The notes below the pieces were generated by a model that worked only from the letters and a program-made list of their open reading frames with translations, had not been told where the DNA came from and searched no databases. A program made the position numbers and the translations under genes. This document shows positions 11,719 through 46,802 of a stretch of 46,802 nt of DNA, one piece after another. The DNA is from a virus: the IMG/VR virus record IMGVR_UViG_3300039323_000029. One strand, given 5' to 3'. The first letter of the stretch is position 1. Every line of letters starts with the position of its first letter.

Positions 11719-11723
11719 ATAAT
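11695..11723 (+). promoter_or_regulatory. Perfect sigma70-type promoter TTGACA-17-TATAAT for the plus-strand cassette
   Basis: TTGACAttatcatgcaagcatgaTATAAT. Confidence 0.75.
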
Positions 11724-11821
11724 GATACCGTAAACAAGAAGCAGACCCGCAGCACGGCGCAGGCCGTAGGCGCTCAATGCTTCACCATTCAAGAATGATT
11801 AAATATGCAGGAGGTTACAGT

Positions 11822-12578: not shown

Positions 12579-12583
12579 ACCAC

Positions 12584-12609
12584 AGCCCCGGCCAACCCGT
12601 GCCGGGGCT
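12584..12609 (+). terminator. GC hairpin (possible attenuator) upstream of the FtsK-like gene
   Basis: AGCCCCGGC-caacccgt-GCCGGGGCT followed by TATTT. Confidence 0.35.
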
Positions 12610-12630
12610 TATTTCATAGGAGGATACACC

Positions 12631-13362
12631 ATGCACAAAGAATGGAGAACGCCGCCCGGACAGGTTTATAACCTGTACCGGGATATGCTCAAACAGCCGC
12701 ATTTGCTCATTGCAGGCGCAACGGGCAGCGGTAAATCAGTAGTTATTAACGGCCTTGTATATACGGCCATGTATGACAGCCCCGCCGCCGTGCAATTCAT
12801 CTTAATTGACCCTAAACGGGTTGAATTGGTGGATTATAAGCTGCTCCCGCATACGCTCATGTATGCAAGTGAACCGGGGGAAATGGTGGAAGCCTTAGAA
12901 AAGGCTATGGAGATAACAGAAAGCCGATACAAGGCCATGCAGCGCCAGAGGGTCAAGAAGTACCCAGGCGGGGCGCTGTATGTCATCATTGACGAATTGG
13001 CCGACCTTATGACCACAGCCCGCCGCCAGGTGCAGCCGCTTATACAGCGCCTTGCACAGGTAGGCAGAGCGGCAAACGTGCATATTATAGCCGCCACACA
13101 ATGCCCGCTTGCTACTGTGATACCCACGCCTATAAAAGTAAACTTTGATAGCCGGGTAGCCTTGCGCACCCGCTCCGCACAGGACAGCCGCAATATATTA
13201 GGCTTAACCGGGTGCGAACTGTTACCCCGATATGGTCAAGGCTACTATATGACCCCGGACGGCTTGAAGCTGTACAACATACCCATGCAGCCCCAGGAAG
13301 ATATAAACGCCCTTGTAAAGTATTGGCAGCGCTCCCGGCCACGTTTCCGGCTATTCAAATAA
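12631..13362 (+). CDS. Minimal FtsK/SpoIIIE-family ATPase (motor domain only, 243 aa)
   Basis: Walker A LIAGATGSGKSVVIN, Walker B ALYVIIDELADL, and VHIIAATQ / ALRT blocks typical of FtsK motors. Start at the ATG with an AGGAGG RBS. No TM or gamma domain. Confidence 0.8.
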   Translation: MHKEWRTPPGQVYNLYRDMLKQPHLLIAGATGSGKSVVINGLVYTAMYDSPAAVQFILIDPKRVELVDYKLLPHTLMYASEPGEMVEALEKAMEITESRYKAMQRQRVKKYPGGALYVIIDELADLMTTARRQVQPLIQRLAQVGRAANVHIIAATQCPLATVIPTPIKVNFDSRVALRTRSAQDSRNILGLTGCELLPRYGQGYYMTPDGLKLYNIPMQPQEDINALVKYWQRSRPRFRLFK

Positions 13363-13367
13363 CGCAA

Positions 13368-13397
13368 GCCCCGCCCACCGTGGCGGGGTTTTCCTTT
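13368..13397 (+). terminator. Rho-independent terminator ending the plus-strand cassette
   Basis: CCCCGCC-caccgt-GGCGGGG followed by TTTTCCTTT. Confidence 0.7.
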
Positions 13398-13530
13398 ACC
13401 GTCCAGCGGCCAGCGCCGCCCAGGGTGGTTATTTTATGCCCAGGCGGGCGACTACCCCCGCAAGCCAGAAACGCCCAGAGGGGCGCACAGACGGCCACAG
13501 CGGGCAGGCCAGCCGGAACGCCGCAGGGCA

Positions 13531-13567
13531 TGAGAAAAGCCCCGGCGCAGCCGTAGCCGTGCCGGGG
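13531..13567 (-). terminator. Hairpin plus U-rich tail downstream of terS
   Basis: Minus strand CCCCGGC-14 nt-GCCGGGG CTTTTCTC, 28 nt after the terS stop. Confidence 0.45.
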
Positions 13568-13594
13568 TTGGTGGTGTGGGATGGTGCAAGAGGT

Positions 13595-14251
13595 TTAGCC
13601 CCTGGGGGCTTTCTGTGCCTTTCTGGGAGTTTCCACAGTTTCGACAATAACCCCTTCTGCGCTTTCTGCTCCTTCTGGGAGTTCCAGCACATCAGCAGCG
13701 GGAAGCCCTTCTGTGACTCCATAGGTATTTTCAAGATACTTCTGTTTAAGTGCTTCTGCGTCCTTCTGCTCTCCCAGGGGGTTAGTGTTAGGAGTGAGAA
13801 CCACTTCCTGCTGGTCTTTCAGGCCGTCATAGTTCTTCTGCCAGAATATGCCAGTAACGGGGTTGACCTTGCCGTCCTCCATGAGTCCTTCTCTGTACAT
13901 GGCACAAATCTGTTGCACTTTTTTTACAAAGTCGGTGCGGGCAGGGTTCCCCAAATTCCTATTAGCCCATTCCCATGCTGTACCCTTATCTATACCTATC
14001 GCAGCATACGCCGCCTGATTGCCTATCTTCATATCCCACTGGGCGCAGAGTTCCAGATAACGGGCAAAACGCCGCTCCATTTCCTCCACGTCATTATGGT
14101 CAAGGGGTTCAGTCGGAAGGATAATCTGCATGAACCTAATCTTTCTGGCATTATACCCTTCTGGCAGGTCAGGGTTCTGCTCCACAGGCAGCGGGTTATC
14201 CGTTCTGGCCTGTCTGGGTTTCAGGTCTTTCGCTCCGGGTGTTCGTGCCAT
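13595..14251 (-). CDS. terS: Terminase small subunit
   Basis: 218 aa. HTH-like GNQAAYAAIGIDKGTAWEWANR, then NPVTGIFWQKNYDGLKD (the IF-LKN-fGw-D block common in small terminases). First gene after the replication module. Confidence 0.6.
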   Translation of the reverse strand: MARTPGAKDLKPRQARTDNPLPVEQNPDLPEGYNARKIRFMQIILPTEPLDHNDVEEMERRFARYLELCAQWDMKIGNQAAYAAIGIDKGTAWEWANRNLGNPARTDFVKKVQQICAMYREGLMEDGKVNPVTGIFWQKNYDGLKDQQEVVLTPNTNPLGEQKDAEALKQKYLENTYGVTEGLPAADVLELPEGAESAEGVIVETVETPRKAQKAPRG

Positions 14252-14357
14252 TCTCCTTCACCGCCTTTCTGCCCTTCTGGGGCTTCTGCTCCTTCTGGGC
14301 TTTCTTCTGGGCAGCTTCTTTCTGCTCCCTGTGATACCGTTCAACATAACTTTCCAT
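14196..14357 (-). CDS. Possible Lys/Gln-rich small ORF (53 aa) overlapping the terS start
   Basis: Strong RBS AAAGGAGGAAACGACA-ATG. MESYVERYHREQKEAAQKKAQKEQKPQKGRKAVKENG... Low-complexity sequence, so uncertain. Confidence 0.3.
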   Translation of the reverse strand: MESYVERYHREQKEAAQKKAQKEQKPQKGRKAVKENGTNTRSERPETQTGQNG

Positions 14358-14383
14358 TGTCGTTTCCTCCTTTCTGTGAGGAA

Positions 14384-14471
14384 GGTAGAGTAAAATCGAA
14401 TTTTACTATAACTTCTTCTTAGTACACGCATACTAAGAGAAATTATAGGGAAAACGTGAAAATACTCTACC
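14384..14471. repeat. 88-bp structured element, copy R2 (paralogue of 11401-11488), with an extra ACTCTACC at 14474-14481
   Basis: Block-wise alignment with R1. On the minus strand it contains TTTTCCCTATAAT (-10-like box at 14442-14447) and the hairpin CTTAGTA-N6-TACTAAG. Confidence 0.8.
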
Positions 14472-25806: not shown

Positions 25807-26322
25807 TTACTCTACGATGTTCCAGTCATCGGTCAGCATATCAGTCTGGGAAGCCAGCCAACCGACAACGAACTTGTTATCAGCGGTCTTGAGTACAATG
25901 GACTGCCCGGTCAGGTCACCTTCCATATCCTGTACGCAGGACAGGTCTGCGGGAGTGCTGAACTCAATGTCATCAGCCAGGAACAGGAACATACCCTTTC
26001 CATTCCATCCCTCACGGGCAACCTTCTTGCCCTCCTTGATATAGTCCAGCGCAACGCTGAAAGAGAAGTTGGGAACAGGAACCGCAGTAGAGTCAATGGC
26101 CTGCTGGCCGTTTTCCTCTACAACCTCCCAGTCACCCTTCATTACCCACATCAGGTCACGGGGGAACAGACGGTTGGTAGGAACGTCCTGTTCAGCAGAC
26201 GTATCCTCAAAGTGGTTCATCAGCACACCTTCCTGGTTCATATACCAGTAGGCGTTCTTCCAACCCACCAGCTTGATTTTCTTGCCCTCATGCAGGGCGT
26301 TTTCAACAGCAGCGAAAGTCAT
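25807..26322 (-). CDS. Tandem DUF2829 (Tad2-like) protein
   Basis: The C-terminal half FSFSVALDYIKEGKKVAREGWNGKGMFLFL...VVGWLASQTDMLTDDWNIVE matches the DUF2829 signature. The N-terminal half (FAAVENALHEGKKIKLVGW...GDWEVVE) is a degenerate second copy. Confidence 0.7.
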   Translation of the reverse strand: MTFAAVENALHEGKKIKLVGWKNAYWYMNQEGVLMNHFEDTSAEQDVPTNRLFPRDLMWVMKGDWEVVEENGQQAIDSTAVPVPNFSFSVALDYIKEGKKVAREGWNGKGMFLFLADDIEFSTPADLSCVQDMEGDLTGQSIVLKTADNKFVVGWLASQTDMLTDDWNIVE

Positions 26323-28314: not shown

Positions 28315-29430
28315 TTACCTCCCTTCCTCAAGGATTTTCAGGGAGTTCAGTATCAGGTCGGCAACTTTGCGCTTCGGATACACCGCCCTGAATAGGTGTT
28401 CCAGCATTTTCACAGGGATGGAGTTGCCAGCCATCTTGTAAATCTGGGTTTTGGAAATGCCGTTGTTCATCAGCAGTTCCACGTCAGCGTCAGTGAAGCC
28501 CATCAACCTGAAATACTCCGTAGGAGTCAGTTTGCGGTAACGCTCACCATCGTAAACTTTCACCTCACGTCCCCCCCCTGATACGGTTTTCAAGGTTGGG
28601 CATAGGCCGTCTGGTGAGTAAACCCGGTTCATCTGGTCGTTTCCGTAGTGCTGCAAGTCGGCAATTTGCTTAATTACCACCTTGCACTTCACCACCTTCG
28701 GGTCTTTGTAGTCCCTGGACAGGAGCGTGGGGCATATCCCCCCCCTGTCACCGATATGGCCGGGGTGCGCAGCGTTGTGGGTAATGACGCTTTGGGTTTT
28801 ATCTTCGGATAGATAGAATTGTTCAGGTACTTCATCATCCAGATAGTCACCCATGCAGGTTGTCAGCGGCACGGTAGCGGGGAAGCTAAACTTCCCATCG
28901 TCCACGTCCTTGCGAATTGATACAATCAAGACCCGCTCACGGCTCTGCGGAAGTTCGTAGTCAGCGCAGTTCATAACCTGCCAGTAATTGTTGTAGCCAG
29001 CTTCTTCAAGGCTTTTCAACACAAGGCCAAAGACAGGCTTCATGCTCTTGCTGGTCAAATGCTTCACGTTTTCCGCAATCGCAATTTTGGGACGGGTAGC
29101 TTCTATAATGCGGAGTGCGTCAAAGAACAGGCCGCTTCGGGTTTTCTTACCTTCACTATCCACCAGTCCTTTCTTTTCTCCGGCAATAGAAATGTCTTGA
29201 CACGGGAACCCGTAGGTTATGAGGTCAAGGTTGCGGGGTAACCGGGTTTCATCAATCTTTGTAATGTCACCGTAGTTCATGCTTTCCGGGACTTCGTGGA
29301 GAAGGGCGTATGCTTTACTTGCATACTTGTCAATCTCACAATAGCCAACCAGATTGTAGGCAATCCCCACATTTTCCAGCGCCCTTTCAAAGGCTCCTAT
29401 GCCGCTGAACAGCGATAACACGTTCAGCAT
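28315..29430 (-). CDS. DNA (cytosine-5)-methyltransferase
   Basis: Motifs I LFSGIGAFE, IV GFPCQDIS, VI ENV, VIII QSRERV, X GNSIPV. Confidence 0.92.
   Translation of the reverse strand: MLNVLSLFSGIGAFERALENVGIAYNLVGYCEIDKYASKAYALLHEVPESMNYGDITKIDETRLPRNLDLITYGFPCQDISIAGEKKGLVDSEGKKTRSGLFFDALRIIEATRPKIAIAENVKHLTSKSMKPVFGLVLKSLEEAGYNNYWQVMNCADYELPQSRERVLIVSIRKDVDDGKFSFPATVPLTTCMGDYLDDEVPEQFYLSEDKTQSVITHNAAHPGHIGDRGGICPTLLSRDYKDPKVVKCKVVIKQIADLQHYGNDQMNRVYSPDGLCPTLKTVSGGGREVKVYDGERYRKLTPTEYFRLMGFTDADVELLMNNGISKTQIYKMAGNSIPVKMLEHLFRAVYPKRKVADLILNSLKILEEGR
28571..28578 (-). repeat. G8 homopolymer (C8 on the plus strand) inside the methyltransferase gene
   Basis: cacgtCCCCCCCCTGATAcgg; encodes SGGG. 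Confidence 0.95.
28738..28745 (-). repeat. G8 homopolymer inside the methyltransferase gene
   Basis: atatCCCCCCCCTGtcacc; encodes RGG. Confidence 0.95.
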
Positions 29431-30358
29431 TAAGTACCTCCTTCTTCAATCATTTTCCAGCGGAACCGTCTGTCCGTTGGAACCAACCCCTTATCCTCAA
29501 ACTGGAAGCGCCTATCAAAATCGTGGACTGTTCGTCCATCGGAATGAAACGACACCGGGGAGTCCAAGTCCCACTTCATAAGAAGCGCCCAGAGGTCAGG
29601 GTAGTTCTTTCGGAGTTGCCGTAACTGGTCAACTCCCTGGTTGTGGCAAAACCAGCAGCCGCCACGGGTTGCAGTGGTGTATATGGGTGATAACAGGTCA
29701 TTTTCTTCACACCATTTCCAAGCGTCCGCTTCTGTCCAGCCGATTTCAGCCAGGGGTGACTTCTTAGTCACGCCGTCACAGCGTTCCAGGCGTTTAGGCT
29801 CGTCAATGGCAATCCCCAAATACTCCACCACAGTATGTTTATCAGTCCCCTGCGGGGTGGGACTTTCGGAAAAGACTTCATGGCTCTCCGCAGCGCAGCC
29901 ATCTTTAGGTCGGAGTTGCACCAGTTTCCCTTCCTCATGGGAAAGCCGTAAATCCTGCCCTGTCTGGCCGGAATTGCCTTGTAGAATATCTTTTCGTAAG
30001 TCAATATTGCTTCCGTATTTAAGGTGCTTGCACCACCCGCCGATGGTGAGAGGGAAGCCTTTGATGGTTCCTGGGAATTTTCCGGTCTGCAAGATACCGT
30101 AAAACCGTCTTTCGTAGGTGTCCTGTTCCCCCCCCTGATAGCGGAAATGTGTTCCACTTCAATACCCCATCGTTCCTTAATGATAGCGTCAGCTTTTCGC
30201 TTGAACTCCACCATTGGAGGAAGGTCAGCAGAAATTTCACAGGTTGCCCAGATTTCTGCGTGGACGATACGGTCAAGAGGCCAACCCAGTTTTTCAATGG
30301 CTCCCAGGCAAGCAAGGCTGTCTTTACCGTAACTTAGGAACAGTATGTGTTCGGTCAT
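29430..30358 (-). CDS. PAPS-reductase-family PP-loop protein, split into two overlapping frames at a G8 tract (ORF A 30358->29768, ORF B 30092->29430)
   Basis: N-terminus LFLSYGKDSLA (SGGKDS-type PP-loop). C-terminus GCWFCHNQ...YPDLW typical of phage PAPS-reductase-like proteins. A -1 shift at 30128-30135 joins them. Confidence 0.7.
30128..30135 (-). repeat. G8 homopolymer at the frame junction of the PAPS-reductase-like gene
   Basis: ctgttCCCCCCCCTGATAgcgg. The 0-frame reads ATC AGG GGG GGG AAC; the -1 frame continues GAA CAG GAC ACC TAC. Confidence 0.95.
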
Positions 30359-30963
30359 TTCTTTCCTCCCTCCTGGAGGTTCTTGAACTCCTGAAGAAGT
30401 GCGGCCAGTTCGGGGTCTTTTTCGGACAGCAGTTCGTAGATAGCTGTCTGCTGCAACTGCTGAACCTTCACGTCCATCTTGCGCTTGAGTTCAGCCAATT
30501 TGCGGGCTTTCTCACGGCGTTCCTCATAGGCGGTCATATCCACCTTACAGATGACTTCCCGGCCACAGTGAACTTCGTCCTGTCTGCCATCTTCCAGAGA
30601 AACAACCTTTGCCAGACCCAGGCCGTGGTGACCCGTTTTGACCACTACGGTATCGCCTACCTGAATGGTAGTGTCGTAGAGTGCGTACATATACTTCTTG
30701 CCGTTCTCACCAGCGTCAAGAAACTGTACGCCTACCACAATGAAATCGTCCTGCATTACGTAATCCTCACTTTCGGTTATTTGAATTTCGCTGGGCTTGA
30801 ACCAGAACACCCCGTATTGACTGCTTTTGTTAGTGAAGTTATCTAACTTCACACCCACCGTGTTTTCATAGACACGCAGGACAGTCCCGGCTTCACTGGT
30901 GTATTTGCCCTTATAGCTTGCATACGGGAGAATAGTCACCCGTGCATTGATGGAAACTTCCAT
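30355..30963 (-). CDS. Hypothetical protein with C-terminal coiled coil (202 aa)
   Basis: ATG 30963 preceded by GGGAGG. The track start 30981 would run into the VR2 hairpin. Confidence 0.55.
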   Translation of the reverse strand: MEVSINARVTILPYASYKGKYTSEAGTVLRVYENTVGVKLDNFTNKSSQYGVFWFKPSEIQITESEDYVMQDDFIVVGVQFLDAGENGKKYMYALYDTTIQVGDTVVVKTGHHGLGLAKVVSLEDGRQDEVHCGREVICKVDMTAYEERREKARKLAELKRKMDVKVQQLQQTAIYELLSEKDPELAALLQEFKNLQEGGKK

Positions 30964-30978
30964 GCGTACCTCCCACTT

Positions 30979-30999
30979 CACACCCCATAAAGGGGTGTG
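30979..30999 (-). promoter_or_regulatory. GC hairpin 12 nt downstream of VR2 (DGR target-recognition-type structure)
   Basis: CACACCCC-ataaa-GGGGTGTG. Confidence 0.6.
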
Positions 31000-31002
31000 A
31001 TT

Positions 31003-31569
31003 TTAGATTTTGAAAGCGGGACGCACACCGGGAGCGTAGGAAGCGTAGTAGTAGGTCGCAAAGCCGTCGTCGTCGACATTGGCAAAAAGCGCAGCGGAAC
31101 CCTCCACCTTGTTCTGCAACCAGTACCATTCCCACGTCCCGGTCTTGCTTCCCTGGAACGCAATGCGGTTGCGGCGGTCTTTCATAGGCTCCCACTGTTC
31201 TACGTCATCCGGCTCCTTCTCACCGTAGGGGTTGTAGCCGAAAATCTCACGCTCCGTGGGCAGGCGCAGCAGGTCACCGCTCTCAAAAGCCACCATCTTC
31301 TCACGGATTTCAGCCGGGAAGCGGTCAAGGATTTCAGTGTTGAGCGCCTTACGCAGTGCGCAGGACTTGTACCCTCCACGGTTGGAACTGGTACGGTTCA
31401 TGGAATACTCCTTACGCAGGCAGTCCACCAGAACGAAAATCATGCCGTCCTGCTCCTGCTTTACGGCCAGGGCTTCCACTTCTTCGCCGTCATTGAGGGT
31501 GAAGGTGATAACGTCACCCACGCAGTAGTGACCATCGGCCACTGCTTCGATAGTTCTAAACAACTTCAT
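31003..31569 (-). CDS. Second (remote) DGR target protein, 188 aa, with C-terminal variable ligand-binding (CLec/DUF1566-like) region
   Basis: Last 29 codons are VR2. C-terminus WEWYWLQNKVEGSAALFANVDDDGFATYYYASYAPGVRPAFKI parallels the VR1 target WFWLRDVVSAARFAYVGDSGNANSNSASLAAGVRPAFSIIG. Confidence 0.8.
   Translation of the reverse strand: MKLFRTIEAVADGHYCVGDVITFTLNDGEEVEALAVKQEQDGMIFVLVDCLRKEYSMNRTSSNRGGYKSCALRKALNTEILDRFPAEIREKMVAFESGDLLRLPTEREIFGYNPYGEKEPDDVEQWEPMKDRRNRIAFQGSKTGTWEWYWLQNKVEGSAALFANVDDDGFATYYYASYAPGVRPAFKI
31012..31098 (-). repeat. DGR variable repeat VR2
   Basis: 87-nt alignment to TR: 15 mismatches, 14 at TR adenines (coding strand) and 1 at position 79. Confidence 0.85.
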
Positions 31570-31588: not shown

Positions 31589-32971
31589 TTATTCAATGAT
31601 TTTGCAGCCACACTTACGGTAGCTGGTGCAGCGCTGCTTGAATGACTTGAGTAGAGAACGGATATTGTCTACGTAGTCATAAACAATAGGTTGCTGCTTG
31701 TCCTTAAAGGTTCTTGCCACCCGGCCTACACTCTGTACAATGACTGCGTAGTCCTTTTGAGGGGTGGTCAGGAAAAGGCGGTCAAGTCTGGGAATATCCA
31801 GTCCTTCCTTCGCCAGGGCGTAGGTTGCGAACAGATACCGTTTCCGGCCAGTACGCATATCCTCAATGGCCTGCTCCCTCTCTGCTTTCTTTGCCTTGCT
31901 GGTCATCGTTCCATCAATGACCGCAGCCTGGGCTTTCAGCGCCGGGGGAAGCATGGAGTAGAGTTCTTTCAGGTGACCCACTCTTTCGGAGAGAACCAGA
32001 TTGTAATGGTCACGGCTCTCCATCAGGTCATCCAGAATGAACTTATTGCGGGCTTCCAGTTCGGTGAGGTAAGAAATCAACTTAGCGTAGTTGACTGTAC
32101 CGTCACTGTTCAGGAAGCTGGCACTCATGCCCACGCCTGTACCTTTCGGGTGAACGTGAACGGTCATCACTCTGGACTTGACCGCTTCGTCCGGGACTGT
32201 CCAAACCACTTCACCAATCATGGCGTATGTGGCCTTGATAAGGCCGTCTGCCCGGTGTACCGTTGCCGATAGACCGTATTTGTGCCTTGCCCGCAGGGAG
32301 TTGAGTACCTTGCTGAACTGGGTTACCGCCGTGGGTGTGCCGCTTACACGGTGACATTCATCCACAATAATGCAGTCCCATTCATCCCTATACTGTTCCA
32401 GGTCAACCTTGCACATCGTCTGGACAGTGGCAAAGGTCATTGACTGGCCTATGTCCACCTTACCTTCGGTGATAGTGCCAAGCAGGTCAGGGTTTATGTA
32501 CTGCGCTGCTCTGGCCTTACTCTGGGTCAGCAGGTCTTTTGTGTGCGTCAACCACAGGGTCTTGACTCCCAGTGCAGCGGCCAGTGCAATTCCCATCTGG
32601 GTTTTACCACTGCCTGCGGGGGATTGCAGGATACCGTAGTGGTTGATAAGCATTGCGGCCACCGCTTCTTCCTGATACTCATACAGCGGGACAGTCCCGC
32701 CAAAGTCTACCTTGACTGGTTTGCGGTACAGTTTCTTCCAATCTCCTTCCAGGAGAGGGAGGATAGACCGTAGACAGCCAAACGGAAGAATGAGGTCATT
32801 GCCGTTCATGCTGTAAAGAAAGAGTTGCTTCGGGGTGTCACCCACCCACAGGTGCATACGTACCTTTTTTTGATAGTCCGGGTTGACCAGTACCAGATTG
32901 CTTTTGCACCAGTCCATAATCTCTTGTGACGGGTCTGTGATTTTGATGGTGCTACCGATTTCCGTCAACAT
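31589..32971 (-). CDS. SF2 DEAD/DEAH-type helicase
   Basis: Motif I QSPAGSGKT, II VDECH, VI QSVGRVAR. Start at ATG 32971 (GGAGG RBS, ATGTTGA overlap). Confidence 0.85.
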   Translation of the reverse strand: MLTEIGSTIKITDPSQEIMDWCKSNLVLVNPDYQKKVRMHLWVGDTPKQLFLYSMNGNDLILPFGCLRSILPLLEGDWKKLYRKPVKVDFGGTVPLYEYQEEAVAAMLINHYGILQSPAGSGKTQMGIALAAALGVKTLWLTHTKDLLTQSKARAAQYINPDLLGTITEGKVDIGQSMTFATVQTMCKVDLEQYRDEWDCIIVDECHRVSGTPTAVTQFSKVLNSLRARHKYGLSATVHRADGLIKATYAMIGEVVWTVPDEAVKSRVMTVHVHPKGTGVGMSASFLNSDGTVNYAKLISYLTELEARNKFILDDLMESRDHYNLVLSERVGHLKELYSMLPPALKAQAAVIDGTMTSKAKKAEREQAIEDMRTGRKRYLFATYALAKEGLDIPRLDRLFLTTPQKDYAVIVQSVGRVARTFKDKQQPIVYDYVDNIRSLLKSFKQRCTSYRKCGCKIIE

Positions 32972-33390
32972 CCCGCTTCCTCCATGAGGTAAATCCACTG
33001 TGAGAAGGACGGATACGTGCGTATGTCATCCTCCGACAGGCTCTTAACCCCGTGCAGTTCCAGCATGGTCAGTTCATCAAATGGCACCATGTAGATTTCA
33101 CCGTCATTCAATCTCATGGCAAAAGCGCAGTAGGCGTTACCACGTGCTTCCCAGAGGGTCATAGCCCCTTCCTGGTTGCACTCAATACGGGAGAGAGGGA
33201 AGCGATTGTTCTCACAATCCTTGCAGTCAATGAGAACCGCAATGTTGCTCTTCGCCGCAATCACGTCTGCGGGTTGCCCAGTCTGGTTCTGTGCCAGGTT
33301 GTGCGCCCACCAGCCACATTCAGCCAGAAGGTCACATAGGTCATTCTCAAAACGAGTGCCAACCGTCCTATTTACGGTTGATGACTTCAT
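32965..33390 (-). CDS. Holliday junction resolvase-like PD-(D/E)xK nuclease (Hjc/RecU type)
   Basis: GTRFENDLCDLL...ADVIAAK..IAVLIDCKD pattern. Start moved to ATG 33390. Confidence 0.55.
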   Translation of the reverse strand: MKSSTVNRTVGTRFENDLCDLLAECGWWAHNLAQNQTGQPADVIAAKSNIAVLIDCKDCENNRFPLSRIECNQEGAMTLWEARGNAYCAFAMRLNDGEIYMVPFDELTMLELHGVKSLSEDDIRTYPSFSQWIYLMEEAGC

Positions 33391-33811: not shown

Positions 33812-33840
33812 TTGACAAGAAGGAGTTCAATGGTTATAAT
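33812..33840 (+). promoter_or_regulatory. Perfect sigma70-type promoter TTGACA-17-TATAAT pointing toward the repressor/integrase
   Basis: TTGACAagaaggagttcaatggtTATAAT. Confidence 0.7.
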
Positions 33841-33945: not shown

Positions 33946-33974
33946 ATAATATCAAAGTCAACTTAGATTGTCAA
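33946..33974 (-). promoter_or_regulatory. Sigma70-type promoter TTGACA-17-TATTAT pointing toward the cro-like/early operon
   Basis: Minus strand TTGACAatctaagttgactttgaTATTAT. Confidence 0.65.
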
Positions 33975-34019: not shown

Positions 34020-34373
34020 ATGACATTCTATGAGCGATACGAAACATTGTGTACAGAACGGGGTATGAAGCCGCAAACCCAGGAAATTCTTGATATTTTG
34101 GGGGTCACTTCGCCCACAATCTCCGGCTGGAAGAAGGGTTCCAGCCCTAAAATGGAAGCTGTCTGCTGTTTGGCACGATACTTCGGGGTAACCACAGACT
34201 ACCTTATGGGTCTAAGTGAACTTAGAACCCCCGGTATGGTATTGACAGAGGAAGAACTTCTACTGCTCAACACCTATCGCAATTCCAGCACCCAGGGACG
34301 CTTCCGTATTATTCAGGTCTGTATGAATGAAATGGATACCACTGGAAAAGGGGCAACCGTAAATGCCGGATAA
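34020..34373 (+). CDS. CI-like XRE-family repressor
   Basis: HTH QEILDILGVTSPTISGWKKG...LARYFGVTTDYLMG; AGGAGG RBS. Confidence 0.8.
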   Translation: MTFYERYETLCTERGMKPQTQEILDILGVTSPTISGWKKGSSPKMEAVCCLARYFGVTTDYLMGLSELRTPGMVLTEEELLLLNTYRNSSTQGRFRIIQVCMNEMDTTGKGATVNAG

Positions 34374-34400
34374 TTGACTTGAATGAGTGGAGGAAGAACC

Positions 34401-35984
34401 ATGTATGAAGAAATCAAAGAAGTAGCGCTGTATGTACGCTATTCCAGTGCCAACCAGACAGAACAATCCATTGAGGGACAGATACGTGTCTGCACGGACT
34501 TCTGCCAGCGTCACGGGTTCCGTATTGTTGAGATATACGCAGACCGGGCAACATCGGCCAGCAAGGATATTGAAAAGCGTGTAGAGTTCCTACGCATGAT
34601 AAAGGACTCCGAAAAGAAGAATTTTCAGGCCGTCATAGTCTACAAGCTGGACAGGTTTGCCCGCTCCCGCTATGACAGCGCCAACTACAAATACCGTCTG
34701 CGAAAGAATGGAGTACAGCTTATTTCGGCCACGGAGAATATCTCCAATGACCCAGAAGGTATTATCCTTGAGTCTGTGCTTGAGGGCATGGCAGAGTTTT
34801 ACAGCGCAGAACTCTCCCAGAAAATCAACCGTGGCATGAAGGAGTCGGCTTATAAGCATAACTCCATTGGTGGTGTCATTCCTCTGGGGTATAAATCGGA
34901 AGGAAAGAAACTGGTCATTGATGAAGAAACGGCTCCCATCGTCCGGCAGGCTTTTGAAATGTACGCAGAGGGTCATAGTGTTGCGGAGATATGCCGTCTG
35001 TTCAATGCCCGTGGGTATAAGACCTCCAAAGGTACACGGTTCGGAAAGAGTTCTTTCAGCAGAATGTTCCACAATGAGCGGTACATCGGAGTGTACCAAT
35101 ACCATGACTACCGGGCAGAGGACGCTATACCTGCCATCATTGATAAAAAGCTGTTCTATCAAGTGCAAGCCCGCATGAAATCAAATAACCGCAGTCCCGG
35201 CCAGCATAAGGCCAAACACTTCTACCTGCTGTCTGGCAAATTATACTGCGGTCACTGCGGTTCTAAGATGAACGCCAGTAGCAACACCACTTCCGGCTAC
35301 ACCTATTATGAGTGCTATGGAAAGAAAAACCTCCATGTAGACTGCCACAAGCGGAACCTGCGCCAAGACTTCATAGAGGACGTAGTAATCCGTGACGCTA
35401 TGTCATTGCTCACGGATGAAAATATTGAACAAATTGCAGAAGTAGCCATCCGTACCAACCTCCATGACGTGGAAGGTAACACAGATATTCCGGCCATCAA
35501 AGACAGACTACACGAAACAACGCTTTCCCTTTCCAACCTGGTCAAGGCTATTGAAAGTGGACTTGCCCCGGAAACACTGGTCAAGCGTATGGTGGAATTA
35601 GAGAAAGACAAAAAGACCCTGGAAGAAGAACTCAAGCGTGAGGAAAAGAAGGTCATCTATCTGGACAAGGAACAGGTCATCTTCTGGCTGGAACAGTTCA
35701 AAGGCGGGGATATTGAGGATGACGATTTCCGCAGACTGCTGGTGAACCTATTCGTCAACTCCGTTACGGTATGGGATGAAGAAGATGACCACTTCAAGGT
35801 CACCATAGCCTACAACCTTAGTTCTCTCAACGAAAAAACCTACCACCTCAAGAGAGGTGGTAGGCAGTCGGATTTCAACCTCAATGCACCAGCTTTCGGG
35901 ACAAATCCGACAATCCACGGAACCCTGCTATATCACACAACTACGTGCTGCATGAAGCGCCGGAACATCAATCAGGAAGTTTAA
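34401..35984 (+). CDS. int: Large serine recombinase (integrase)
   Basis: Resolvase domain ALYVRYSSANQ...DRFARS, recombinase domain, Cys-rich zinc ribbon CGHCGS...ECYGK, coiled-coil C-terminus. Confidence 0.9.
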   Translation: MYEEIKEVALYVRYSSANQTEQSIEGQIRVCTDFCQRHGFRIVEIYADRATSASKDIEKRVEFLRMIKDSEKKNFQAVIVYKLDRFARSRYDSANYKYRLRKNGVQLISATENISNDPEGIILESVLEGMAEFYSAELSQKINRGMKESAYKHNSIGGVIPLGYKSEGKKLVIDEETAPIVRQAFEMYAEGHSVAEICRLFNARGYKTSKGTRFGKSSFSRMFHNERYIGVYQYHDYRAEDAIPAIIDKKLFYQVQARMKSNNRSPGQHKAKHFYLLSGKLYCGHCGSKMNASSNTTSGYTYYECYGKKNLHVDCHKRNLRQDFIEDVVIRDAMSLLTDENIEQIAEVAIRTNLHDVEGNTDIPAIKDRLHETTLSLSNLVKAIESGLAPETLVKRMVELEKDKKTLEEELKREEKKVIYLDKEQVIFWLEQFKGGDIEDDDFRRLLVNLFVNSVTVWDEEDDHFKVTIAYNLSSLNEKTYHLKRGGRQSDFNLNAPAFGTNPTIHGTLLYHTTTCCMKRRNINQEV

Positions 35985-38193: not shown

Positions 38194-38634
38194 TTACGCC
38201 TGGTATTCCTCCCACCCAGCAGGGTAGGCTTCGGGACTCCATACGTTTCCGTCAATGGTGGAGCGATACAGCTTGCCATTATAGCTTACAATATCGCCAG
38301 TTTCGTATGCGTCAGTGGAACCAAGGGGCTGAACCCATTCAGGGTAACCATCCTCTGTCACGCCTACGGCCTTGTACAGGCTGGTAGCGGTGTCGGGTGT
38401 CCACTGTTCCGCACTGGTATGTTCCTGCAAGACCTGATAAAGCTGGGGGTCACCCACGGCGTTCATGCCATAGGAGAACACGTCCTTCTCCTTGTAGACC
38501 ACGCCCACAGAGTAGGCGGGAAATACAGAAGGGATTTCCAACATCATGTCAAGCTGGGTGTCAGCGTCCATAGTCCCTACAAAGAACTGCAAGGCTTTAC
38601 GCATTTCCAGTGCTGCTTGAGTCATTCCGCTCAT
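38194..38634 (-). CDS. Tail-fibre-associated protein with CBM5/12-like carbohydrate-binding C-terminus
   Basis: YETGDIVSYNGKLYRSTIDGNVWSPEAYPAGWEEY. Confidence 0.55.
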   Translation of the reverse strand: MSGMTQAALEMRKALQFFVGTMDADTQLDMMLEIPSVFPAYSVGVVYKEKDVFSYGMNAVGDPQLYQVLQEHTSAEQWTPDTATSLYKAVGVTEDGYPEWVQPLGSTDAYETGDIVSYNGKLYRSTIDGNVWSPEAYPAGWEEYQA

Positions 38635-38637: not shown

Positions 38638-38949
38638 TTATTCCTCCTTTCCAGTCAGCAATACGGTCATGGCCTGCTCCAACTCCGCAATCCTGCGGGC
38701 GGTAGCTTCCTCCTGCTTCTCCTTTTCGGACTTTACGCCCAGGATGAACCAGGAGCGGCCACCATCCACACGGTTACTGATAAGTACCATATCCGTGTAG
38801 GTTTCAGTGGTCTTGCCATCCGTGATAGTTACGGAAGCAAGGTTGTCCTGAAATACAGAGTCCTCAATGACCCCTTCGGCAATGTAGTTATTGCCGTTCA
38901 GTTCCAGGTTTTCCAGCTTCGTACCGTTGTTCAGGGTGATAGTGTACAT
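38638..38949 (-). CDS. Hypothetical protein (103 aa)
   Basis: ORF. Its first 62 nt overlap the 3' end of the RT ORF. Confidence 0.45.
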   Translation of the reverse strand: MYTITLNNGTKLENLELNGNNYIAEGVIEDSVFQDNLASVTITDGKTTETYTDMVLISNRVDGGRSWFILGVKSEKEKQEEATARRIAELEQAMTVLLTGKEE

Positions 38950-40144
38950 TGTGGTAGACCTCCTTCTTTAGGTTGATATAAAGCGTGTCCATGTTCTCCC
39001 GCTGTTGTTTGCTCATAATACGGTAGTGATTGCGGAACCACGAACCGTACCAATCGTCAAACTCCTTTTCGGTGAGGATATGAACCAACTTCTTCATTTT
39101 CCTTCTCATGTTCGTCAACCTCTTAGGGTTGATTTTCTGTATGACCCGGCCAGTGTCGGTCAGGGCATATTGCACTTGAAGGAACCGCCACAAGCTGGAC
39201 AGCTTGCAGATACGGGTTTTGCGGGTATTTACTGTGATACCCAGTTCGTTTGCAATGGCGATAATGCCTTGCAGTAGTTCTTCAAGGAACTCTTTGTCCT
39301 CATGGATAGCATAGGAGTCATCCATGTACCGTCCATAGAACTTTACGCCCTTGACGATTTTGACATAGTTGTCAATCGGTATAGGATAGATTATCCCAGC
39401 AACCTGCGCTACCTGGTCACCGATGTTCAAGTGCTTATACATGAACTTCTCACCAGTCAGCAGGCTCCTGTCCACGTCCTGATATTCCAGGGAGTTGAAC
39501 ACCCTATCCATGCACCCGGCGTATTCTTCATCCGTCATGTAGGATACATCGACCTTAGAACGGTCAATCACCGCACGTAGGAAGTTCAACGCCCTCTCGT
39601 CATGGACATACTTTTCAAACTGCGCCATCAGGTCATCGTGCCTGATATTGTCGTAGTATTTAGAAAAGTCTATCAGCAGGATATACCCATCATTGGAACC
39701 ATGTTGACGGTAATACCTGCGCAGGTGAGTTACCAGACGCTTCCGGGCAAAGTCTATACCTTTTCCTTTAATGCTTGCGCTATTATCGTAAATAAGGTAC
39801 TTTCTCAACGCAGGGGTCAGCACTTCATCACACAATCCATGCTTTGCCACCCGGTCATGTATCTGTTCGCCTGTAATCCTGCGTACTTTCCCTCTTTCAT
39901 GCAAGGTGAACTCCGTAGAGGGCTGAAAGATAGGGTTACCTGTCAAGTGTTCCTGCTGCAAGCCAGACAGTTCAAACAGAAGGTTCATTTCAAACCGCTG
40001 TACCTGCGGTTTCCAATCACTGCCCTGTTTGGCTCTTAGAAAACTCTCATAGAGTACATTTCCGTCAAATATCTCACGCTGATAACCTCTTTCACCATTA
40101 CTGGTACTCTCGTAAGAGTGGGTGTCGTGTTTAGTATTTACCAT
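38888..40144 (-). CDS. DGR reverse transcriptase
   Basis: YGRYMDDSY (YxDD box) and LNIGDQVAQ (DGR-type I/LGxxxSQ-like motif). Directly downstream of TR. Confidence 0.9.
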   Translation of the reverse strand: MVNTKHDTHSYESTSNGERGYQREIFDGNVLYESFLRAKQGSDWKPQVQRFEMNLLFELSGLQQEHLTGNPIFQPSTEFTLHERGKVRRITGEQIHDRVAKHGLCDEVLTPALRKYLIYDNSASIKGKGIDFARKRLVTHLRRYYRQHGSNDGYILLIDFSKYYDNIRHDDLMAQFEKYVHDERALNFLRAVIDRSKVDVSYMTDEEYAGCMDRVFNSLEYQDVDRSLLTGEKFMYKHLNIGDQVAQVAGIIYPIPIDNYVKIVKGVKFYGRYMDDSYAIHEDKEFLEELLQGIIAIANELGITVNTRKTRICKLSSLWRFLQVQYALTDTGRVIQKINPKRLTNMRRKMKKLVHILTEKEFDDWYGSWFRNHYRIMSKQQRENMDTLYINLKKEVYHNVHYHPEQRYEAGKPGTERQ

Positions 40145-40192: not shown

Positions 40193-40831
40193 CTATTTAA
40201 CTGCGAAATTGAAATCGGGACGCACACCGTTAGCGTTGGAAGCGTTGTTGTAGTTCGCATTGCCGTTGTTGTTGACATTGGCAAAATTAGCAGCGGAAGT
40301 AGAGATTGCCCCGGTCTTGAATTTGTTGTCTGCTTTTCTCCAACCCTTAATCAGGTTGATTTCCGTCTGTATTGCTTCACCAAACTGCAAATAGGTGTTC
40401 ACATCAACGGGTAGGGTTTCGATAGCATACTGCAATTCCTGTGCAAGGCGGTAGCACTGGCCTATGGCTTCGTCCTGGTGTATCCTTCGCTGAATGAGTT
40501 CTTCCATGCAGGTAGGGTAGATACTGTTTGCAATGAAAACCTCTTTTGTGATTTCCCGCAGACAATCTACAATGACCTGTCTTTCGTCATAGATGAACCA
40601 ATCGTCAAAGGCTTCCCACTTCAATTTCAGTCGGTCATAACGCTCCCGCTCTGCTTCGGACAGTTCAGGATACTTCCTACCGCCAAAGTGCTTCATCAGG
40701 CGCTTTTCGGCCTTTTCGTAACTGTAACCAAAGTCACGCAGAAGCAATTCGGTTATATCTTTGCGTACCTTGTACAGGTGGTGAAATACCTCAAACTGGG
40801 ACGCTTTACGTTTGTTCTTCAATACAGACAT
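40193..40831 (-). CDS. avd: Avd-like accessory variability determinant. The ORF reads on through TR.
   Basis: Helical basic protein between VR1 and TR; IANSIYPT....RRIHQDEAIGQCYRLAQELQYA resembles four-helix-bundle Avd proteins. The last ~35 codons are TR (NVNNNGNANYNNASNANGVRPDF). Confidence 0.65.
   Translation of the reverse strand: MSVLKNKRKASQFEVFHHLYKVRKDITELLLRDFGYSYEKAEKRLMKHFGGRKYPELSEAERERYDRLKLKWEAFDDWFIYDERQVIVDCLREITKEVFIANSIYPTCMEELIQRRIHQDEAIGQCYRLAQELQYAIETLPVDVNTYLQFGEAIQTEINLIKGWRKADNKFKTGAISTSAANFANVNNNGNANYNNASNANGVRPDFNFAVK
40211..40297 (-). repeat. DGR template repeat (TR)
   Basis: Contains 24 adenines on the coding strand, mostly in AAC/AAT codons. Matches VR1 and VR2 except at adenines. 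No GC hairpin downstream of it. Confidence 0.9.
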
Positions 40832-40846: not shown

Positions 40847-40869
40847 CCCCACCCCATTAAGGGGTGGGG
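40847..40869 (-). promoter_or_regulatory. GC hairpin 23 nt downstream of VR1
   Basis: CCCCACCCC-attaa-GGGGTGGGG. Confidence 0.6.
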
Positions 40870-40877: not shown

Positions 40878-41768
40878 TTAACCGATAATAGAGAAAGCGG
40901 GACGCACACCGGCAGCGAGGGAAGCGGAGTTGGAGTTCGCATTGCCGCTGTCGCCGACATAGGCAAAACGAGCAGCGGATACCACGTCACGCAGCCAGAA
41001 CCAGTTGCGGTTGGAAATCATGTCAGGCCGGAAAGCGAACAACGGGAACTGGCTCTTATCCACGGTGTACAGGGCAGGGACGGTAGAACCATCGTTACCT
41101 GCACCGAACACCTTACCGCCGTAGCAGTTCTGTTCGGTCATCAGTTCCACGGTAGAGTCATACCAGGAACCGCCAGAGGGCTTACCGTTGGTCACAGCGT
41201 TGCAAAGGTACTGTCTGTGAGTCAGCACATGGGCAGAACCAAACGCCGTATTGATGGTGGTCTTAGCCTGCTCAAGACCCTCCGTGTACATCTTACTGCC
41301 CACGTACCCACCAGTGGTGATCTTGGTGTCGTTCATCACGTGGGTGTACATATTTGCGTCAGGAACCAGAGTGACGTGGTGAGTGGTCATATCCGTGTCA
41401 CCAGCCCGCAGGTAGTAGTCAAATGCAGCGATACGGTAGGTAACACCACCGATAACCCAGTAATCACCGATGTACATATCATCAAAGGTTCCGGCCTTGA
41501 TTGCCGCAAACTGCGCAGCAGTAACGGAAGTACCCAGATTGATACCACGGTAGATAGAGTTATGAGCGCCAGCGCCGCTTGCGGTCACCTTGTCCAGAAT
41601 AGTTTTGTGGGCGGTAATCAGGTCAGCCAAGTCCTTCTTGAGCGCCCCGGCAGGTACCTTCTTGAGTCCGTTGCCGTCATGGATGAACAGCATATCGGAG
41701 TCGGCCACGGCCTGCAACGCCGTGAGGTCAGCCATCTTCTTTGCATTTTCAATGGTCAGGTTTGCCAT
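40878..41768 (-). CDS. DGR target 1: receptor-binding tail fibre protein with C-terminal variable region
   Basis: ATG 41768 with an AAGGAGG RBS. Last gene of the tail-fibre block; VR1 lies in the last ~30 codons. Confidence 0.85.
   Translation of the reverse strand: MANLTIENAKKMADLTALQAVADSDMLFIHDGNGLKKVPAGALKKDLADLITAHKTILDKVTASGAGAHNSIYRGINLGTSVTAAQFAAIKAGTFDDMYIGDYWVIGGVTYRIAAFDYYLRAGDTDMTTHHVTLVPDANMYTHVMNDTKITTGGYVGSKMYTEGLEQAKTTINTAFGSAHVLTHRQYLCNAVTNGKPSGGSWYDSTVELMTEQNCYGGKVFGAGNDGSTVPALYTVDKSQFPLFAFRPDMISNRNWFWLRDVVSAARFAYVGDSGNANSNSASLAAGVRPAFSIIG
40893..40979 (-). repeat. DGR variable repeat VR1
   Basis: 87-nt alignment to TR: 15 mismatches, all at TR adenines. Confidence 0.9.
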
Positions 41769-45444: not shown

Positions 45445-46802
45445 TTAAGTAAAGCTGTAACCGTTTGCGTCACGCTGGGTTTGTACAGCGTCCGTAATGG
45501 TGCGATTGCCAATCTGCACAGTAGTCTGTTCCTTCTTGTTGGCCTGCCTGTTCATGTCATCAGCCATCTGGGTCATGGTTCCCTGTACGTACTCCGTGTA
45601 GAAATCGGCCATAGCCCTCTTGAACCCAGCGTAGCCAGGGGAGTCATCAGGTTCATCCGGCAGACCACTTCGTACCTTTTCGGCAAGGGTATCCATCCAT
45701 TCAGTGTGACGTTCCAGAGGAAGCACCGCTTCCTTTCCGGCTTCGCCACCACCCAAGAAAGAGTTACCCAGCATACCGAAAATCTGTGCGCCATCCAGAA
45801 TACCGCCCTTTGCGTTCCACGTCAGGTTAAAGCCGGACGGGTAGGAATAATCCTTACCGAACACTGTTACGGTACTCCATTTGACAGACACTTTCGGAAC
45901 CTTGATACCCAGCGTAGTCCACAGCGTACCCACTGCATTACTCCACCAGGTCTTGACGTTAGACCACCAGGTAGAAGCCTGATTTTGTACGGCAACCTTC
46001 ACAGAGAGGTTACCTACCACACCAGACCACCAGGTCTTGACGTTAGACCACCAGGTAGAAGCCTGGTTCACAACGCTGGTTGTGAAGGACTGAACTGCGC
46101 CGACCTTGCCAGACCACCAAGACTTACAATTACTCCACCACGTAAAGGAGTCGTTCTTCAAACTGGTAGTGAACTGCTGGACTGCACCAACCTTTCCGCT
46201 CCACCAAGTTTTCACGTTGTTCCACCAAGTAGTGGACTCATTCTTCACGGAAGTGGTGAACTGCTGCACGGCTCCGACCTTGCCAGACCACCAGGTCTTG
46301 ACATTGTTCCACCATACGCTGGACTGGTTGGTAACCGTGGTTGTAAACTCCTTCACAGCGCCGACCTTTCCGCTCCACCAGGTCTTAGTGTTGTTCCACC
46401 AAGTAGTGGCGTGGTTCTTCACGTTGGTAGTGAAGGACTGAACTGCACCAACCTTGTTGTCCCACCAAGTACAGACGTTAGACCACCACTCTGCGGCGGT
46501 GTTCTTCACGCCTACGGCAAACTCAACCAGGTCAACGTCCTCAAAGGCTTCCATGAGCGGGTCAAGGATATTGGTCTTAATCCAGGTGCCAATAGCCTTA
46601 AACGGCTTGAGGATACCACCCAGCAGACCTTCCATGATGAAAACGCCAATTTCCTCCATCACGGTAGACGGAGAGTGGATACCGAACAAGTCTTTGAACC
46701 ACTGAACAAAGGGGTCAACGATGTTGGTTTTAATCCAGCCACCGGGGTCTGCAAAGAACTCCGTGAGTCCCTTTGTGAAGCCTGCCCACATATCGGCTCC
46801 GG
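45445..46802 (-). CDS. Tape measure protein, 3' portion (continuation of 2110->1 across the circular junction)
   Basis: The track ORF 45445..46791 begins MWAGFTKGLTEFF, which is internal to the ORF read from 2110; same frame. Confidence 0.85.
   Translation of the reverse strand, partial: GADMWAGFTKGLTEFFADPGGWIKTNIVDPFVQWFKDLFGIHSPSTVMEEIGVFIMEGLLGGILKPFKAIGTWIKTNILDPLMEAFEDVDLVEFAVGVKNTAAEWWSNVCTWWDNKVGAVQSFTTNVKNHATTWWNNTKTWWSGKVGAVKEFTTTVTNQSSVWWNNVKTWWSGKVGAVQQFTTSVKNESTTWWNNVKTWWSGKVGAVQQFTTSLKNDSFTWWSNCKSWWSGKVGAVQSFTTSVVNQASTWWSNVKTWWSGVVGNLSVKVAVQNQASTWWSNVKTWWSNAVGTLWTTLGIKVPKVSVKWSTVTVFGKDYSYPSGFNLTWNAKGGILDGAQIFGMLGNSFLGGGEAGKEAVLPLERHTEWMDTLAEKVRSGLPDEPDDSPGYAGFKRAMADFYTEYVQGTMTQMADDMNRQANKKEQTTVQIGNRTITDAVQTQRDANGYSFT
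45919..46515 (-). repeat. About 6.5 tandem 29-aa (87-nt) Trp-rich repeats within the tape measure
   Basis: TTxVKNxxxxWWxNxKTWWSGKVGAVxxF repeated in the ORF translation. Confidence 0.9.
46704..46802. repeat. Terminal direct repeat, identical to 1-99
   Basis: Base-by-base comparison. Confidence 0.95.

Follow-up and report, generated by a model that had tools for sequence, protein, structure and literature searches.

Why would a phage hypermutate a small lectin-like protein that is encoded among its replication and DNA-modification genes? To our knowledge, vertebrate immunity aside, diversity-generating retroelements (DGRs) are the only natural system in which protein hypermutation is targeted, and those of phages are understood almost wholly as receptor-switching tools. 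The question is raised by the IMG/VR virus record IMGVR_UViG_3300039323_000029, a 46,802-nt stretch of DNA (hereafter the window), in which a DGR cassette beside a tail-module target gene (TGT1) has a second, remote target gene (TGT2) in the early region. Here we find that the variable repeat of TGT2 is an active DGR target, as judged on relatives of the window, and that the arrangement belongs to an already described kind, and we weigh what TGT2 may be for, with some preference for a soluble binder that is made early in infection and stays out of the virion.

A remote variable repeat with its targeting elements

A repeat search of the window returned a single family of ~90-nt direct repeats with three in-register copies, all on the minus strand, which are given here with the remote target gene:

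31010-31099, minus strand: remote variable repeat (VR2), covering the last ~29 codons of TGT2; 15 mismatches to the template repeat, 14 of them at adenines
40209-40298, minus strand: template repeat (TR), in frame at the 3' end of an accessory open reading frame (ORF)
40891-40980, minus strand: cassette-adjacent variable repeat (VR1); differs from the TR at 16 of the 87 nt compared, 15 of these being TR adenines
31003-31569, minus strand: TGT2 (target gene 2), encoding a 188-aa DUF6273 / C-type-lectin-like protein; ribosome-binding site (RBS) GGAGG

The copy at 40209-40298 is identified as the template because it is adenine-rich and lies 65 nt upstream of the reverse-transcriptase (RT) gene; 9.2 kb separate it from VR2. 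Over the 87 nt of TR 40212-40298, which hold 24 adenines, the mismatches of VR2 fall at 14 adenines and, as a T>G change, at the 5' edge (Fisher exact p=4.7e-9 for the adenine bias). An earlier description made from the DNA letters (the sequence-only reading) had placed the repeat in the last ~29 codons with these same counts, 14 of 24 adenines and one 5'-edge change among 15 mismatches, and recomputation returned them unchanged; its VR coordinates lie within 1-2 nt of ours, and the three variable peptides that it quoted (for VR2, TR and VR1) are correct. Its claim that VR2 has been diversified independently of VR1 also stands. Since the TR adenines lie in AAC, AAT, TAC and GAT codons, stop codons cannot arise. 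A 33-nt degenerate pattern built from VR2 matched the three repeat sites only and had no match in 100 shuffles, and the likeness of TR and VRs ends a few bases past the 90-nt repeat on both sides.

Beyond the repeat itself, the locus has the elements in cis that are associated with DGR targeting, namely an initiation of mutagenic homing (IMH) site and a hairpin:

31012-31029, minus strand: IMH-like 3' end of VR2, GGTGTGCGTCCCGCTTTC, identical in VR1; the TR has GATTTC (IMH*-like)
30978-31000, minus strand: hairpin/cruciform of VR2, GC-rich, with a 9-bp stem and a 5-nt loop, 12 nt downstream of VR2, in the 21-nt spacer that precedes the following gene
40847-40869, minus strand: hairpin of VR1, with a 9-bp GC-rich stem (z=-3.5) and covariation among relatives

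The IMH-like end of VR2 differs from the TR by one base, and this IMH/IMH* difference is fixed among the copies gathered below, with GCTTTC in 31 of 31 VR copies and GATTTC in 14 of 14 TR copies. The GC hairpin that the sequence-only reading had noted downstream of VR2, as at VR1, is real (z=-4.5 and -3.5, respectively): the VR2 hairpin at 30978-31000 folds as DNA at -10.6 kcal/mol, z=-4.5 being its score against shuffles, and the same folding of the DNA downstream of the TR found no hairpin there (z=-0.6). The hairpin stem shows compensatory changes among relatives (CACACCCC/GGGGTGTG vs CACGCCAC/GTGGCGTG). An IMH and a downstream hairpin/cruciform suffice to direct mutagenic homing into a heterologous gene (Guo et al., 2011; PMC3240598), and VR2 carries both of these cis elements.

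Rewriting of the remote repeat among relatives

Exact-pattern scans of IMG/VR, together with related loci, yielded 15 distinct TRs, 14 VR1s and 17 VR2s; for four long contigs, the scans recovered a TR from the contig itself. The fractions of aligned cells that depart from the TR consensus are as follows:

TR copies: 0.00 at the 24 A sites, 0.04 at the 63 non-A sites
VR1 copies: 0.60 at the 24 A sites, 0.05 at the 63 non-A sites
VR2 copies: 0.66 at the 24 A sites, 0.06 at the 63 non-A sites

The sequence-only reading had proposed looking for population heterogeneity confined to adenine sites, and among relatives the 17 VR2 copies have this pattern (0.66 vs 0.06). The strongest evidence comes from lineage-specific changes elsewhere in the template: contig 3300045988_056384 has a TR with GTT and AAT, and GTT and the third-position T recur in its own VR1 as well as its VR2, and in contig 3300010260_000162 a TTTTGC is common to TR, VR1 and VR2. 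Non-A markers of the TR that recur in both VRs of one contig amount to co-conversion of markers from the TR to the remote site.

The same signature is seen at the protein level. A search with TGT2 returned 1,774 clusters at E<=1e-5, and in an alignment of the 30 closest homologues (78-96% identical) nearly all variation falls in columns 161, 164, 166-168, 170, 172-175, 178 and 180; these variable columns are the AAC, AAT and TAC codons of the TR, and many rows otherwise match the window protein. The family is large, with ~1,800, 1,200 and 180 homologue clusters at 90% identity from three queries, and such TGT2-family clusters have hundreds to thousands of members. A TR copy was found within the +-10-kb flanks of 2 of 80 related loci, a count that does not measure DGR co-occurrence, as the TR usually lies beyond the stored flank.

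Given the A-site variation, the TR-marker co-conversion and the compensatory hairpin changes in relatives, VR2 is a bona fide, active DGR target. We are nearly certain of the homing mechanism, in which an adenine-mutagenised copy of the TR is written into VR2; the TR is an invariant master copy whose adenine-mutagenised information is passed time and again to VR1 and, remotely, to VR2.

TGT2 as a lectin-like domain

The TGT2 protein matches Pfam family DUF6273 (PF19789) over residues 54-188 with 38.8 bits (vs a curated cutoff of 23.5) and phrog_21980 with E=3e-28. It is hydrophilic and acidic (pI 4.9; top Kyte-Doolittle 19-residue mean 0.92), and its Kyte-Doolittle profile has no transmembrane (TM) segment or signal-like N-terminus, in keeping with the earlier view of an essentially bare variable domain devoid of export signals. 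The C-type-lectin fold that the sequence-only reading had suggested checking was borne out by modelling: AlphaFold2 (AF2) reached a pLDDT of 44 on 31 close homologues, and of 87.7 (pTM 0.85) on an alignment of 129 sequences from three subfamilies. With Foldseek, the latter model matched DUF6273 phage proteins among viral models (E=8e-13), some of which are stand-alone proteins of 160-260 aa and others domains of large proteins annotated as tail-collar fibres or receptor-binding proteins. Against the PDB, the sole match at E<=0.001 was 9qa6, the IgA peptidase of Thomasclavelia ramosa (E=4e-4), followed by a tail of weak canonical C-type-lectin matches. The N-terminal domain of this peptidase is annotated as DUF6273 (PMC12402451), and as that domain is dispensable for IgA recognition it offers no functional hint for TGT2.

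By homology and modelling, then, TGT2 is a single soluble DUF6273 / C-type-lectin-like domain, and no separate anchoring domain was seen on inspection of the model (no formal domain analysis was made). The TGT2 model is in line with published AF2/AF3 models, in which DUF6273 targets have a C-lectin-like fold and a beta-hairpin at the surface carries the VR (PMC10743442; 10.1101/2024.10.15.618418); from these homologue models, the variable residues of TGT2 probably lie on its C-terminal strands. At the 12 variable positions, 87 VR2 variants seldom have Pro, Val or Ile and mostly have Tyr (23%), Asn, Ser, Gly or Asp.

The tail-module target of the same DGR provides a point of comparison:

40878-41768, minus strand: TGT1 (target gene 1), encoding a 296-aa protein; tail module

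Similarity between the two proteins is confined to the C-terminal ~90 aa, at 34% identity, and TGT2 is therefore no recent copy of TGT1. If both bound the same ligand, VR1 and VR2 of one genome would be expected to co-vary, and no such co-variation was seen: same-genome pairs share 1.0 of 12 variable residues vs 1.4 for unrelated pairs, a comparison of weak power (n=7).

Other searches added little. A PDB sequence search with the family profile found nothing meaningful, the region had no megablast match among 50,697 phage records, Rfam has no family within the window, and the NCBIfam results for TGT1, TGT2, the accessory ORF and their neighbours included no informative name. In one Shimadzu-like homologue of 332 aa (P0244; phage Shimadzu is described below), DUF6273 is joined to a C5 DNA-methylase domain, which is either a real fusion or read-through of an adjacent methylase gene.

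Position in the early operon of the window

TGT2 lies in a minus-strand operon that diverges from the lysogeny module:

33946-33974, minus strand: sigma-70-like promoter, TTGACA-17-TATTAT with TG, a consensus match only; heads the operon containing TGT2
31589-32998, minus strand: superfamily 2 (SF2) helicase, the gene of this operon that directly precedes TGT2
28315-30981, minus strand: variable cargo downstream of TGT2, with a phrog_3489 ORF, two PAPS-reductase-like ORFs and a C5 DNA methyltransferase
34020-34373, plus strand: helix-turn-helix repressor of the lysogeny module
34383-35984, plus strand: serine integrase of the lysogeny module, which defines the divergent early operon

In the ORF map TGT2 is the fourth gene of this operon, ~2.4 kb from its start, and follows an ORF of unknown function, a Holliday-junction resolvase and the SF2 helicase. 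After it come another unknown ORF, the PAPS-reductase-like ORFs, the C5 methyltransferase, a DNA polymerase and a Tad2-like protein, and then, in the distal part, Erf, a RecE-like exonuclease, MazG, NrdG/NrdD and primases, the operon ending at ~14.5 kb. A facing promoter on the plus strand (33812-33840; 12/12 consensus match) precedes the repressor. The packing is tight: TGT2 has its own RBS 19 nt past the helicase stop, and at most about 40 nt, taken up by the hairpin and an RBS only, lie between its stop and the start of the next gene. A separate late block holds the terminase, portal, head, tail and lysis genes along with TGT1 and the DGR. The earlier placement of TGT2 outside the tail module and within a replication/DNA-modification operon, with the helicase upstream and an unknown gene (phrog_3489 in our search) and PAPS-reductase and methyltransferase genes downstream, is thus upheld.

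The Tad2-like gene (25807-26322, minus strand), which is in the same operon 4.7 kb downstream of TGT2, encodes an N-terminus of ~85 aa that has no match, followed by a Tad2-like domain (Thoeris anti-defence 2; PF11195, E=8e-25) at the C-terminal end.

Placement and loss of the gene in related phages

Across 80 IMG/VR loci with TGT2 homologues (51-93% identity), the gene is found in at least four arrangements among replication, recombination or methylase genes: after the helicase; second in the early operon, ahead of the resolvase; several kb downstream of a block of helicase, polymerase, Erf and exonuclease genes; or just behind an MT-A70 methyltransferase. Among the gene's other immediate neighbours are primases, a MazF-like protein and a 3D-domain protein. 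Structural-module probes (tail protein, tape measure, target 1 and endolysin) adjoin the homologue in none of the 80 loci and in none of the four cultured phages. The gene that follows TGT2 varies among close relatives, being a C5 methylase, Mom or PAPS reductase, and we found no conserved partner gene, a homologue of the phrog_3489 ORF occurring in 0 of the 80 related loci. A Fontainebleau-like prophage has the homologue between DNA_pol_A and a VapE primase, and in prophages L124 and L126 it lies among replication, recombination or methylase genes.

Two relatives have lost the gene in part or almost entirely. In the closest prophage from a bacterial genome (L118; Lachnospiraceae metagenome-assembled genome (MAG) JAUNDG010000001, 10001-10470; 94% identity), TGT2 is truncated past residue ~141 and the entire VR is gone, with the flanking helicase and PAPS-reductase genes intact. 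In a second relative (L094; IMGVR_UViG_3300029078_000029, about 3900-4050), the target gene is deleted save for the last ~35 nt of VR2 with the IMH and the hairpin, a remnant that is an orphan target site.

Several unrelated lineages also have peptidoglycan-hydrolase-like genes (3D domain or SLT) close to the small DUF6273 target in their early operons (for example, L071:8669-9475; L003 orf40, 30548-31264; L117 gp16, 7828-8358; L124:5127-5765). Such a gene is immediately upstream of the DUF6273 target in 12 loci, and none was seen in the early operon of the window.

Relation to described DGR systems

The sequence-only reading had implied that the arrangement is new and had stated that no function is described for it. 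The latter still holds for function, but the arrangement itself has been described: in three reports, the same protein family is already a second DGR target (10.1101/575076; 10.1101/2024.10.15.618418; PMC11792537). More generally, a 2017 catalogue lists many phage-associated DGRs with non-adjacent second targets in the same prophage (Wu et al., PMC5758913). Homologous small DUF6273 targets in the early region occur in phages Shimadzu, Toutatis/Lelie and Fontainebleau, and TGT2 is thus of an already described kind; remote early-region VRs in Shimadzu, Toutatis and Fontainebleau are what the sequence-only reading had proposed looking for in related phages.

In Roseburia phage Shimadzu, orf43 carries a VR2 and is listed as 'of unknown function', and both VRs were shown to be diversified in virion DNA reads and in mouse-gut isolates (Cornuault et al., bioRxiv 10.1101/575076 / ISME J 2020). 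We verified the three-copy TR/VR family in the Shimadzu genome (LR596903). The orf43 protein is a TGT2 homologue (33% identity, E=4e-15) with a C-terminal VR, and its gene, in the replication module 13.9 kb from the TR, has a DNA methyltransferase and Erf as neighbours; the tail fibre gene, beside Avd, TR and RT, holds VR1. Shimadzu differs from the window phage in being a myovirus of another host, in an N-terminus of orf43 that is ~20 aa longer, in its 129-nt TR and in having no nucleotide similarity to the window.

Faecalibacterium phages Lelie and CP11 have 'small DGR target proteins' with DUF6273, with population variation at both CP11 VRs (PMC11792537). In Toutatisvirus the second target lies 17.5 kb from the TR and is core, being present in 98.8% of genomes, even in those lacking the DGR, and a receptor-binding role has been guessed for it (Egorov and Atkinson, 10.1101/2024.10.15.618418). 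The targets of Toutatis (gp24), Lelie and CP11 resemble TGT2 in being small and DUF6273-only with a C-terminal VR, and in the early region of Toutatis, gp24 has methyltransferases on one side and replication-initiation/antiterminator genes on the other. These phages differ in that their first target is a Hoc-like/tentaclin protein downstream of the RT, and gp24 is too diverged for a match to TGT2 at E<=1e-5.

The closest cultured relative of TGT2 (47% identity) is in Acutalibacter phage Fontainebleau (ON453893), a cultured mouse-gut phage of another genome family. Its source paper does not mention a DGR; we found a two-target DGR, with the TR at 35102-35201, VR1 at 34387 and a VR2 in which 18 of 23 mismatches are at TR adenines. 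The gene with VR2 lies between DNA polymerase I and helicase (L001:7929-8498, L116:17388-18202).

With Bordetella phage BPP-1 (Mtd; PMC3240598) the window shares a TR/VR pair, adenine mutagenesis, an IMH with a downstream hairpin/cruciform, and a C-lectin-fold target with a C-terminal VR. In contrast, the single, cassette-adjacent target of BPP-1 is at the tip of the tail fibre and has domains for trimerisation and anchoring at its N-terminus, and the accessory ORF of the window shows no Avd homology. Cytoplasmic DGR targets are known in bacteria, among them cyanobacterial regulators (PMC7517822) and putative antigen sensors of multicellular bacteria (PMC10907252), which by analogy may serve as a precedent for the proposed intracellular conflict or signalling roles of diversified C-lectin-type domains; however, these are cellular multidomain proteins (NTPase, kinase and similar fusions), whereas TGT2 is a bare phage-encoded domain. 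The passages on second targets (Wu, Cornuault, Lelie/CP11, Egorov and Atkinson) do not discuss early-operon placement or an intracellular role.

What might TGT2 bind?

We rank first, at somewhat better than even confidence, the reading of TGT2 as a soluble, non-virion binder made early in infection, because of its placement in replication/modification operons across siphoviruses and myoviruses from several host genera, its lack of anchoring or export features, and a specificity independent of VR1. The position of TGT2 as the fourth gene of a divergent operon, translationally autonomous and packed between helicase and DNA-modification genes, makes it most likely that the protein is produced early, along with those for replication, remains cytoplasmic until lysis and is not part of the virion. 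Its hypervariable face, rich in Tyr, Ser, Gly and Asp, would then be an evolvable binding site for a macromolecule of the host cell or of a competitor, and each entering genome would express its own TGT2 variant, so that selection would act directly on that variant. As for the ligand, we tentatively prefer host factors that limit infection, in a counter-defence or takeover role, a suggestion that is speculative and made by association: counter-defence is attractive because an intracellular effector has a direct genotype-phenotype link and because Tad2-like and DNA-modification genes are nearby, and in relatives methyltransferases or Mom are found near TGT2 homologues. It may also be, though we put this forward with similar hesitation, that the small DUF6273 second targets are a conserved class of early, cytoplasmic, DGR-diversified binders in phages of gut Clostridia, acting as evolvable intracellular effectors, for instance as inhibitors of host defence or of some other host factor. 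The sequence-only reading had put forward a cytoplasmic, evolvable inhibitor or sensor of host factors, which would fit the early-module placement seen in several lineages.

Several points speak against an early intracellular binder. Early expression of TGT2 is a reasonable inference whose sole basis is gene order and consensus promoter matches, and we found in the literature no expression, localisation or binding data and no virion proteome for TGT2 or its homologues. Phage DGR targets of known function are all virion receptor-binding or adhesion proteins (PMC8144416), and the papers on homologues presume a receptor-binding or adhesion role (10.1101/2024.10.15.618418; PMC10743442). Small DUF6273-only targets adjoin tail genes in other phages (PMC10743442), and small size is therefore no bar to virion attachment. 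The proximity of methyltransferase and Tad2-like genes is weak guilt by association, since such genes are common in phage early regions, and the truncation of TGT2 in L118 and its deletion in L094 mean that it is dispensable.

A possibility that we consider real but clearly less probable is that TGT2 is a conventional extracellular binder, either a virion-docked receptor-binding or decoration protein or a lectin released at lysis for host-surface or gut glycans. TGT2 shares its fold class and its TR with the tail-module target, DUF6273 domains occur in phage proteins annotated as tail-collar fibres and receptor-binding proteins, an extracellular role is what every characterised phage DGR target has (PMC8144416), and the published interpretations of homologues favour receptor binding (10.1101/2024.10.15.618418; PMC10743442). 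However, the gene is in the replication/modification operon in all lineages examined, with no structural-module probe adjoining it, the protein has no visible anchoring domain and no signal-like or TM segment, and VR1 and VR2 do not co-vary (n=7). That lack of co-variation also bears on a receptor-masking or superinfection-exclusion factor with a logic like that of T5 Llp, which would be produced early so as to block the receptor of the phage itself or incoming competitors and whose VR2 would track the specificity of VR1. The early-operon position and the diversification of both targets by one TR would suit such a factor, but we regard it as improbable: TGT2 has no export signal with which to reach the cell surface, same-genome VR1 and VR2 share no more variable residues than unrelated pairs (n=7, weak power), and the TGT1 and TGT2 scaffolds are 34% identical over 90 aa only.

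Slightly less probable again is that VR2 is a neutral passenger, in a DUF6273 gene that has retained an IMH and hairpin and is mutagenised without benefit, any role of the protein being independent of its variability. The gene is truncated (L118) or deleted (L094) in some relatives, and in Toutatisvirus it persists in phages that have no DGR (10.1101/2024.10.15.618418). Yet the IMH, the hairpin (with its compensatory changes) and the reading frame are kept across divergent lineages, variation in the VR contrasts with strong conservation of the scaffold, a layout with two targets is seen again in siphoviruses and myoviruses from four host genera, and the abundance of Tyr (23%) and scarcity of Pro, Val and Ile at the variable positions suggest selection. 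Finally, the similarity of VR2 to the TR might stem from chance or from a recent duplication of VR1 with no part played by the DGR. Nothing beyond the shared repeat speaks for this, and we give it almost no weight given the adenine bias (p=5e-9), the absence of matches in shuffles, the co-conversion of TR markers and the end of similarity near the repeat edges; the adenine-site mismatches and the marker co-conversion refute such an origin.

This second target family marks a gap in the receptor-switching picture of phage DGRs, as it is abundant, conserved and encoded among replication and DNA-modification genes, and it spans phages of Lachnospiraceae, Oscillospiraceae and Faecalibacterium. If TGT2 is intracellular, phages would own an adaptive-like counter-measure system, and such an effector with re-rollable specificity would be the phage-side mirror of the DGR-diversified antigen sensors that have been proposed for bacteria; if it is instead a virion or secreted lectin, gut phages would diversify two independent binding specificities at once. 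The cultured models Shimadzu, Fontainebleau and Lelie make the question directly testable.

The DGR cassette and the remainder of the genome

The other components of the DGR cassette lie beside TGT1:

38888-40144, minus strand: reverse transcriptase of the DGR; PF00078 RVT_1, phrog_1423 (E=6e-57), with IGDQVAQ and YMDD motifs
40193-40831, minus strand: accessory ORF of 212 aa in the Avd position, so named by position only

NCBIfam returned only sub-threshold group II/retron matches for the RT. The accessory ORF reads in frame through the TR, and its C-terminus is the TR peptide; it has no Avd match in Pfam, PHROG or NCBIfam and no similarity to the Toutatis Avd, and may belong to a different accessory-protein family. 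Between the RT and a holin-like gene, a small protein with two CBM_5_12 modules (38194-38634, minus strand) is a potential further glycan binder in the DGR/lysis region.

The first 99 nt of the window are identical to 46704-46802, an exact terminal direct repeat, and the window is therefore a complete, circularly closed phage genome of ~46.7 kb. It is that of a temperate, siphovirus-like prophage, probably of Lachnospiraceae. The nearest genomic match is a prophage in a Lachnospiraceae MAG, with more distant matches in Moryella, Dorea and Faecalibacterium, and in a relative within a 920-kb contig the integration site adjoins pyrH-frr-cdsA-dxr.

A few further features of the genome deserve mention. 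The PAPS-reductase-like gene downstream of TGT2 is split between two ORFs that overlap and differ in frame (29768-30358 and 29430-30092, minus strand), both of which match phrog_424 over consecutive segments of the profile, and the same two-part matches occur in relatives; a frameshift, a pseudogene or a sequencing error are possible causes. The replication and packaging blocks are separated by a plus-strand island at 11395-14422, which includes an FtsK/SpoIIIE-like ATPase (12460-13362) and is opposite in orientation to all surrounding genes. The tape-measure gene probably spans the circular junction, and 87-nt (29-aa) tandem repeats (45927-46503, minus strand) lie inside the tape-measure-like gene at 45445-46791.

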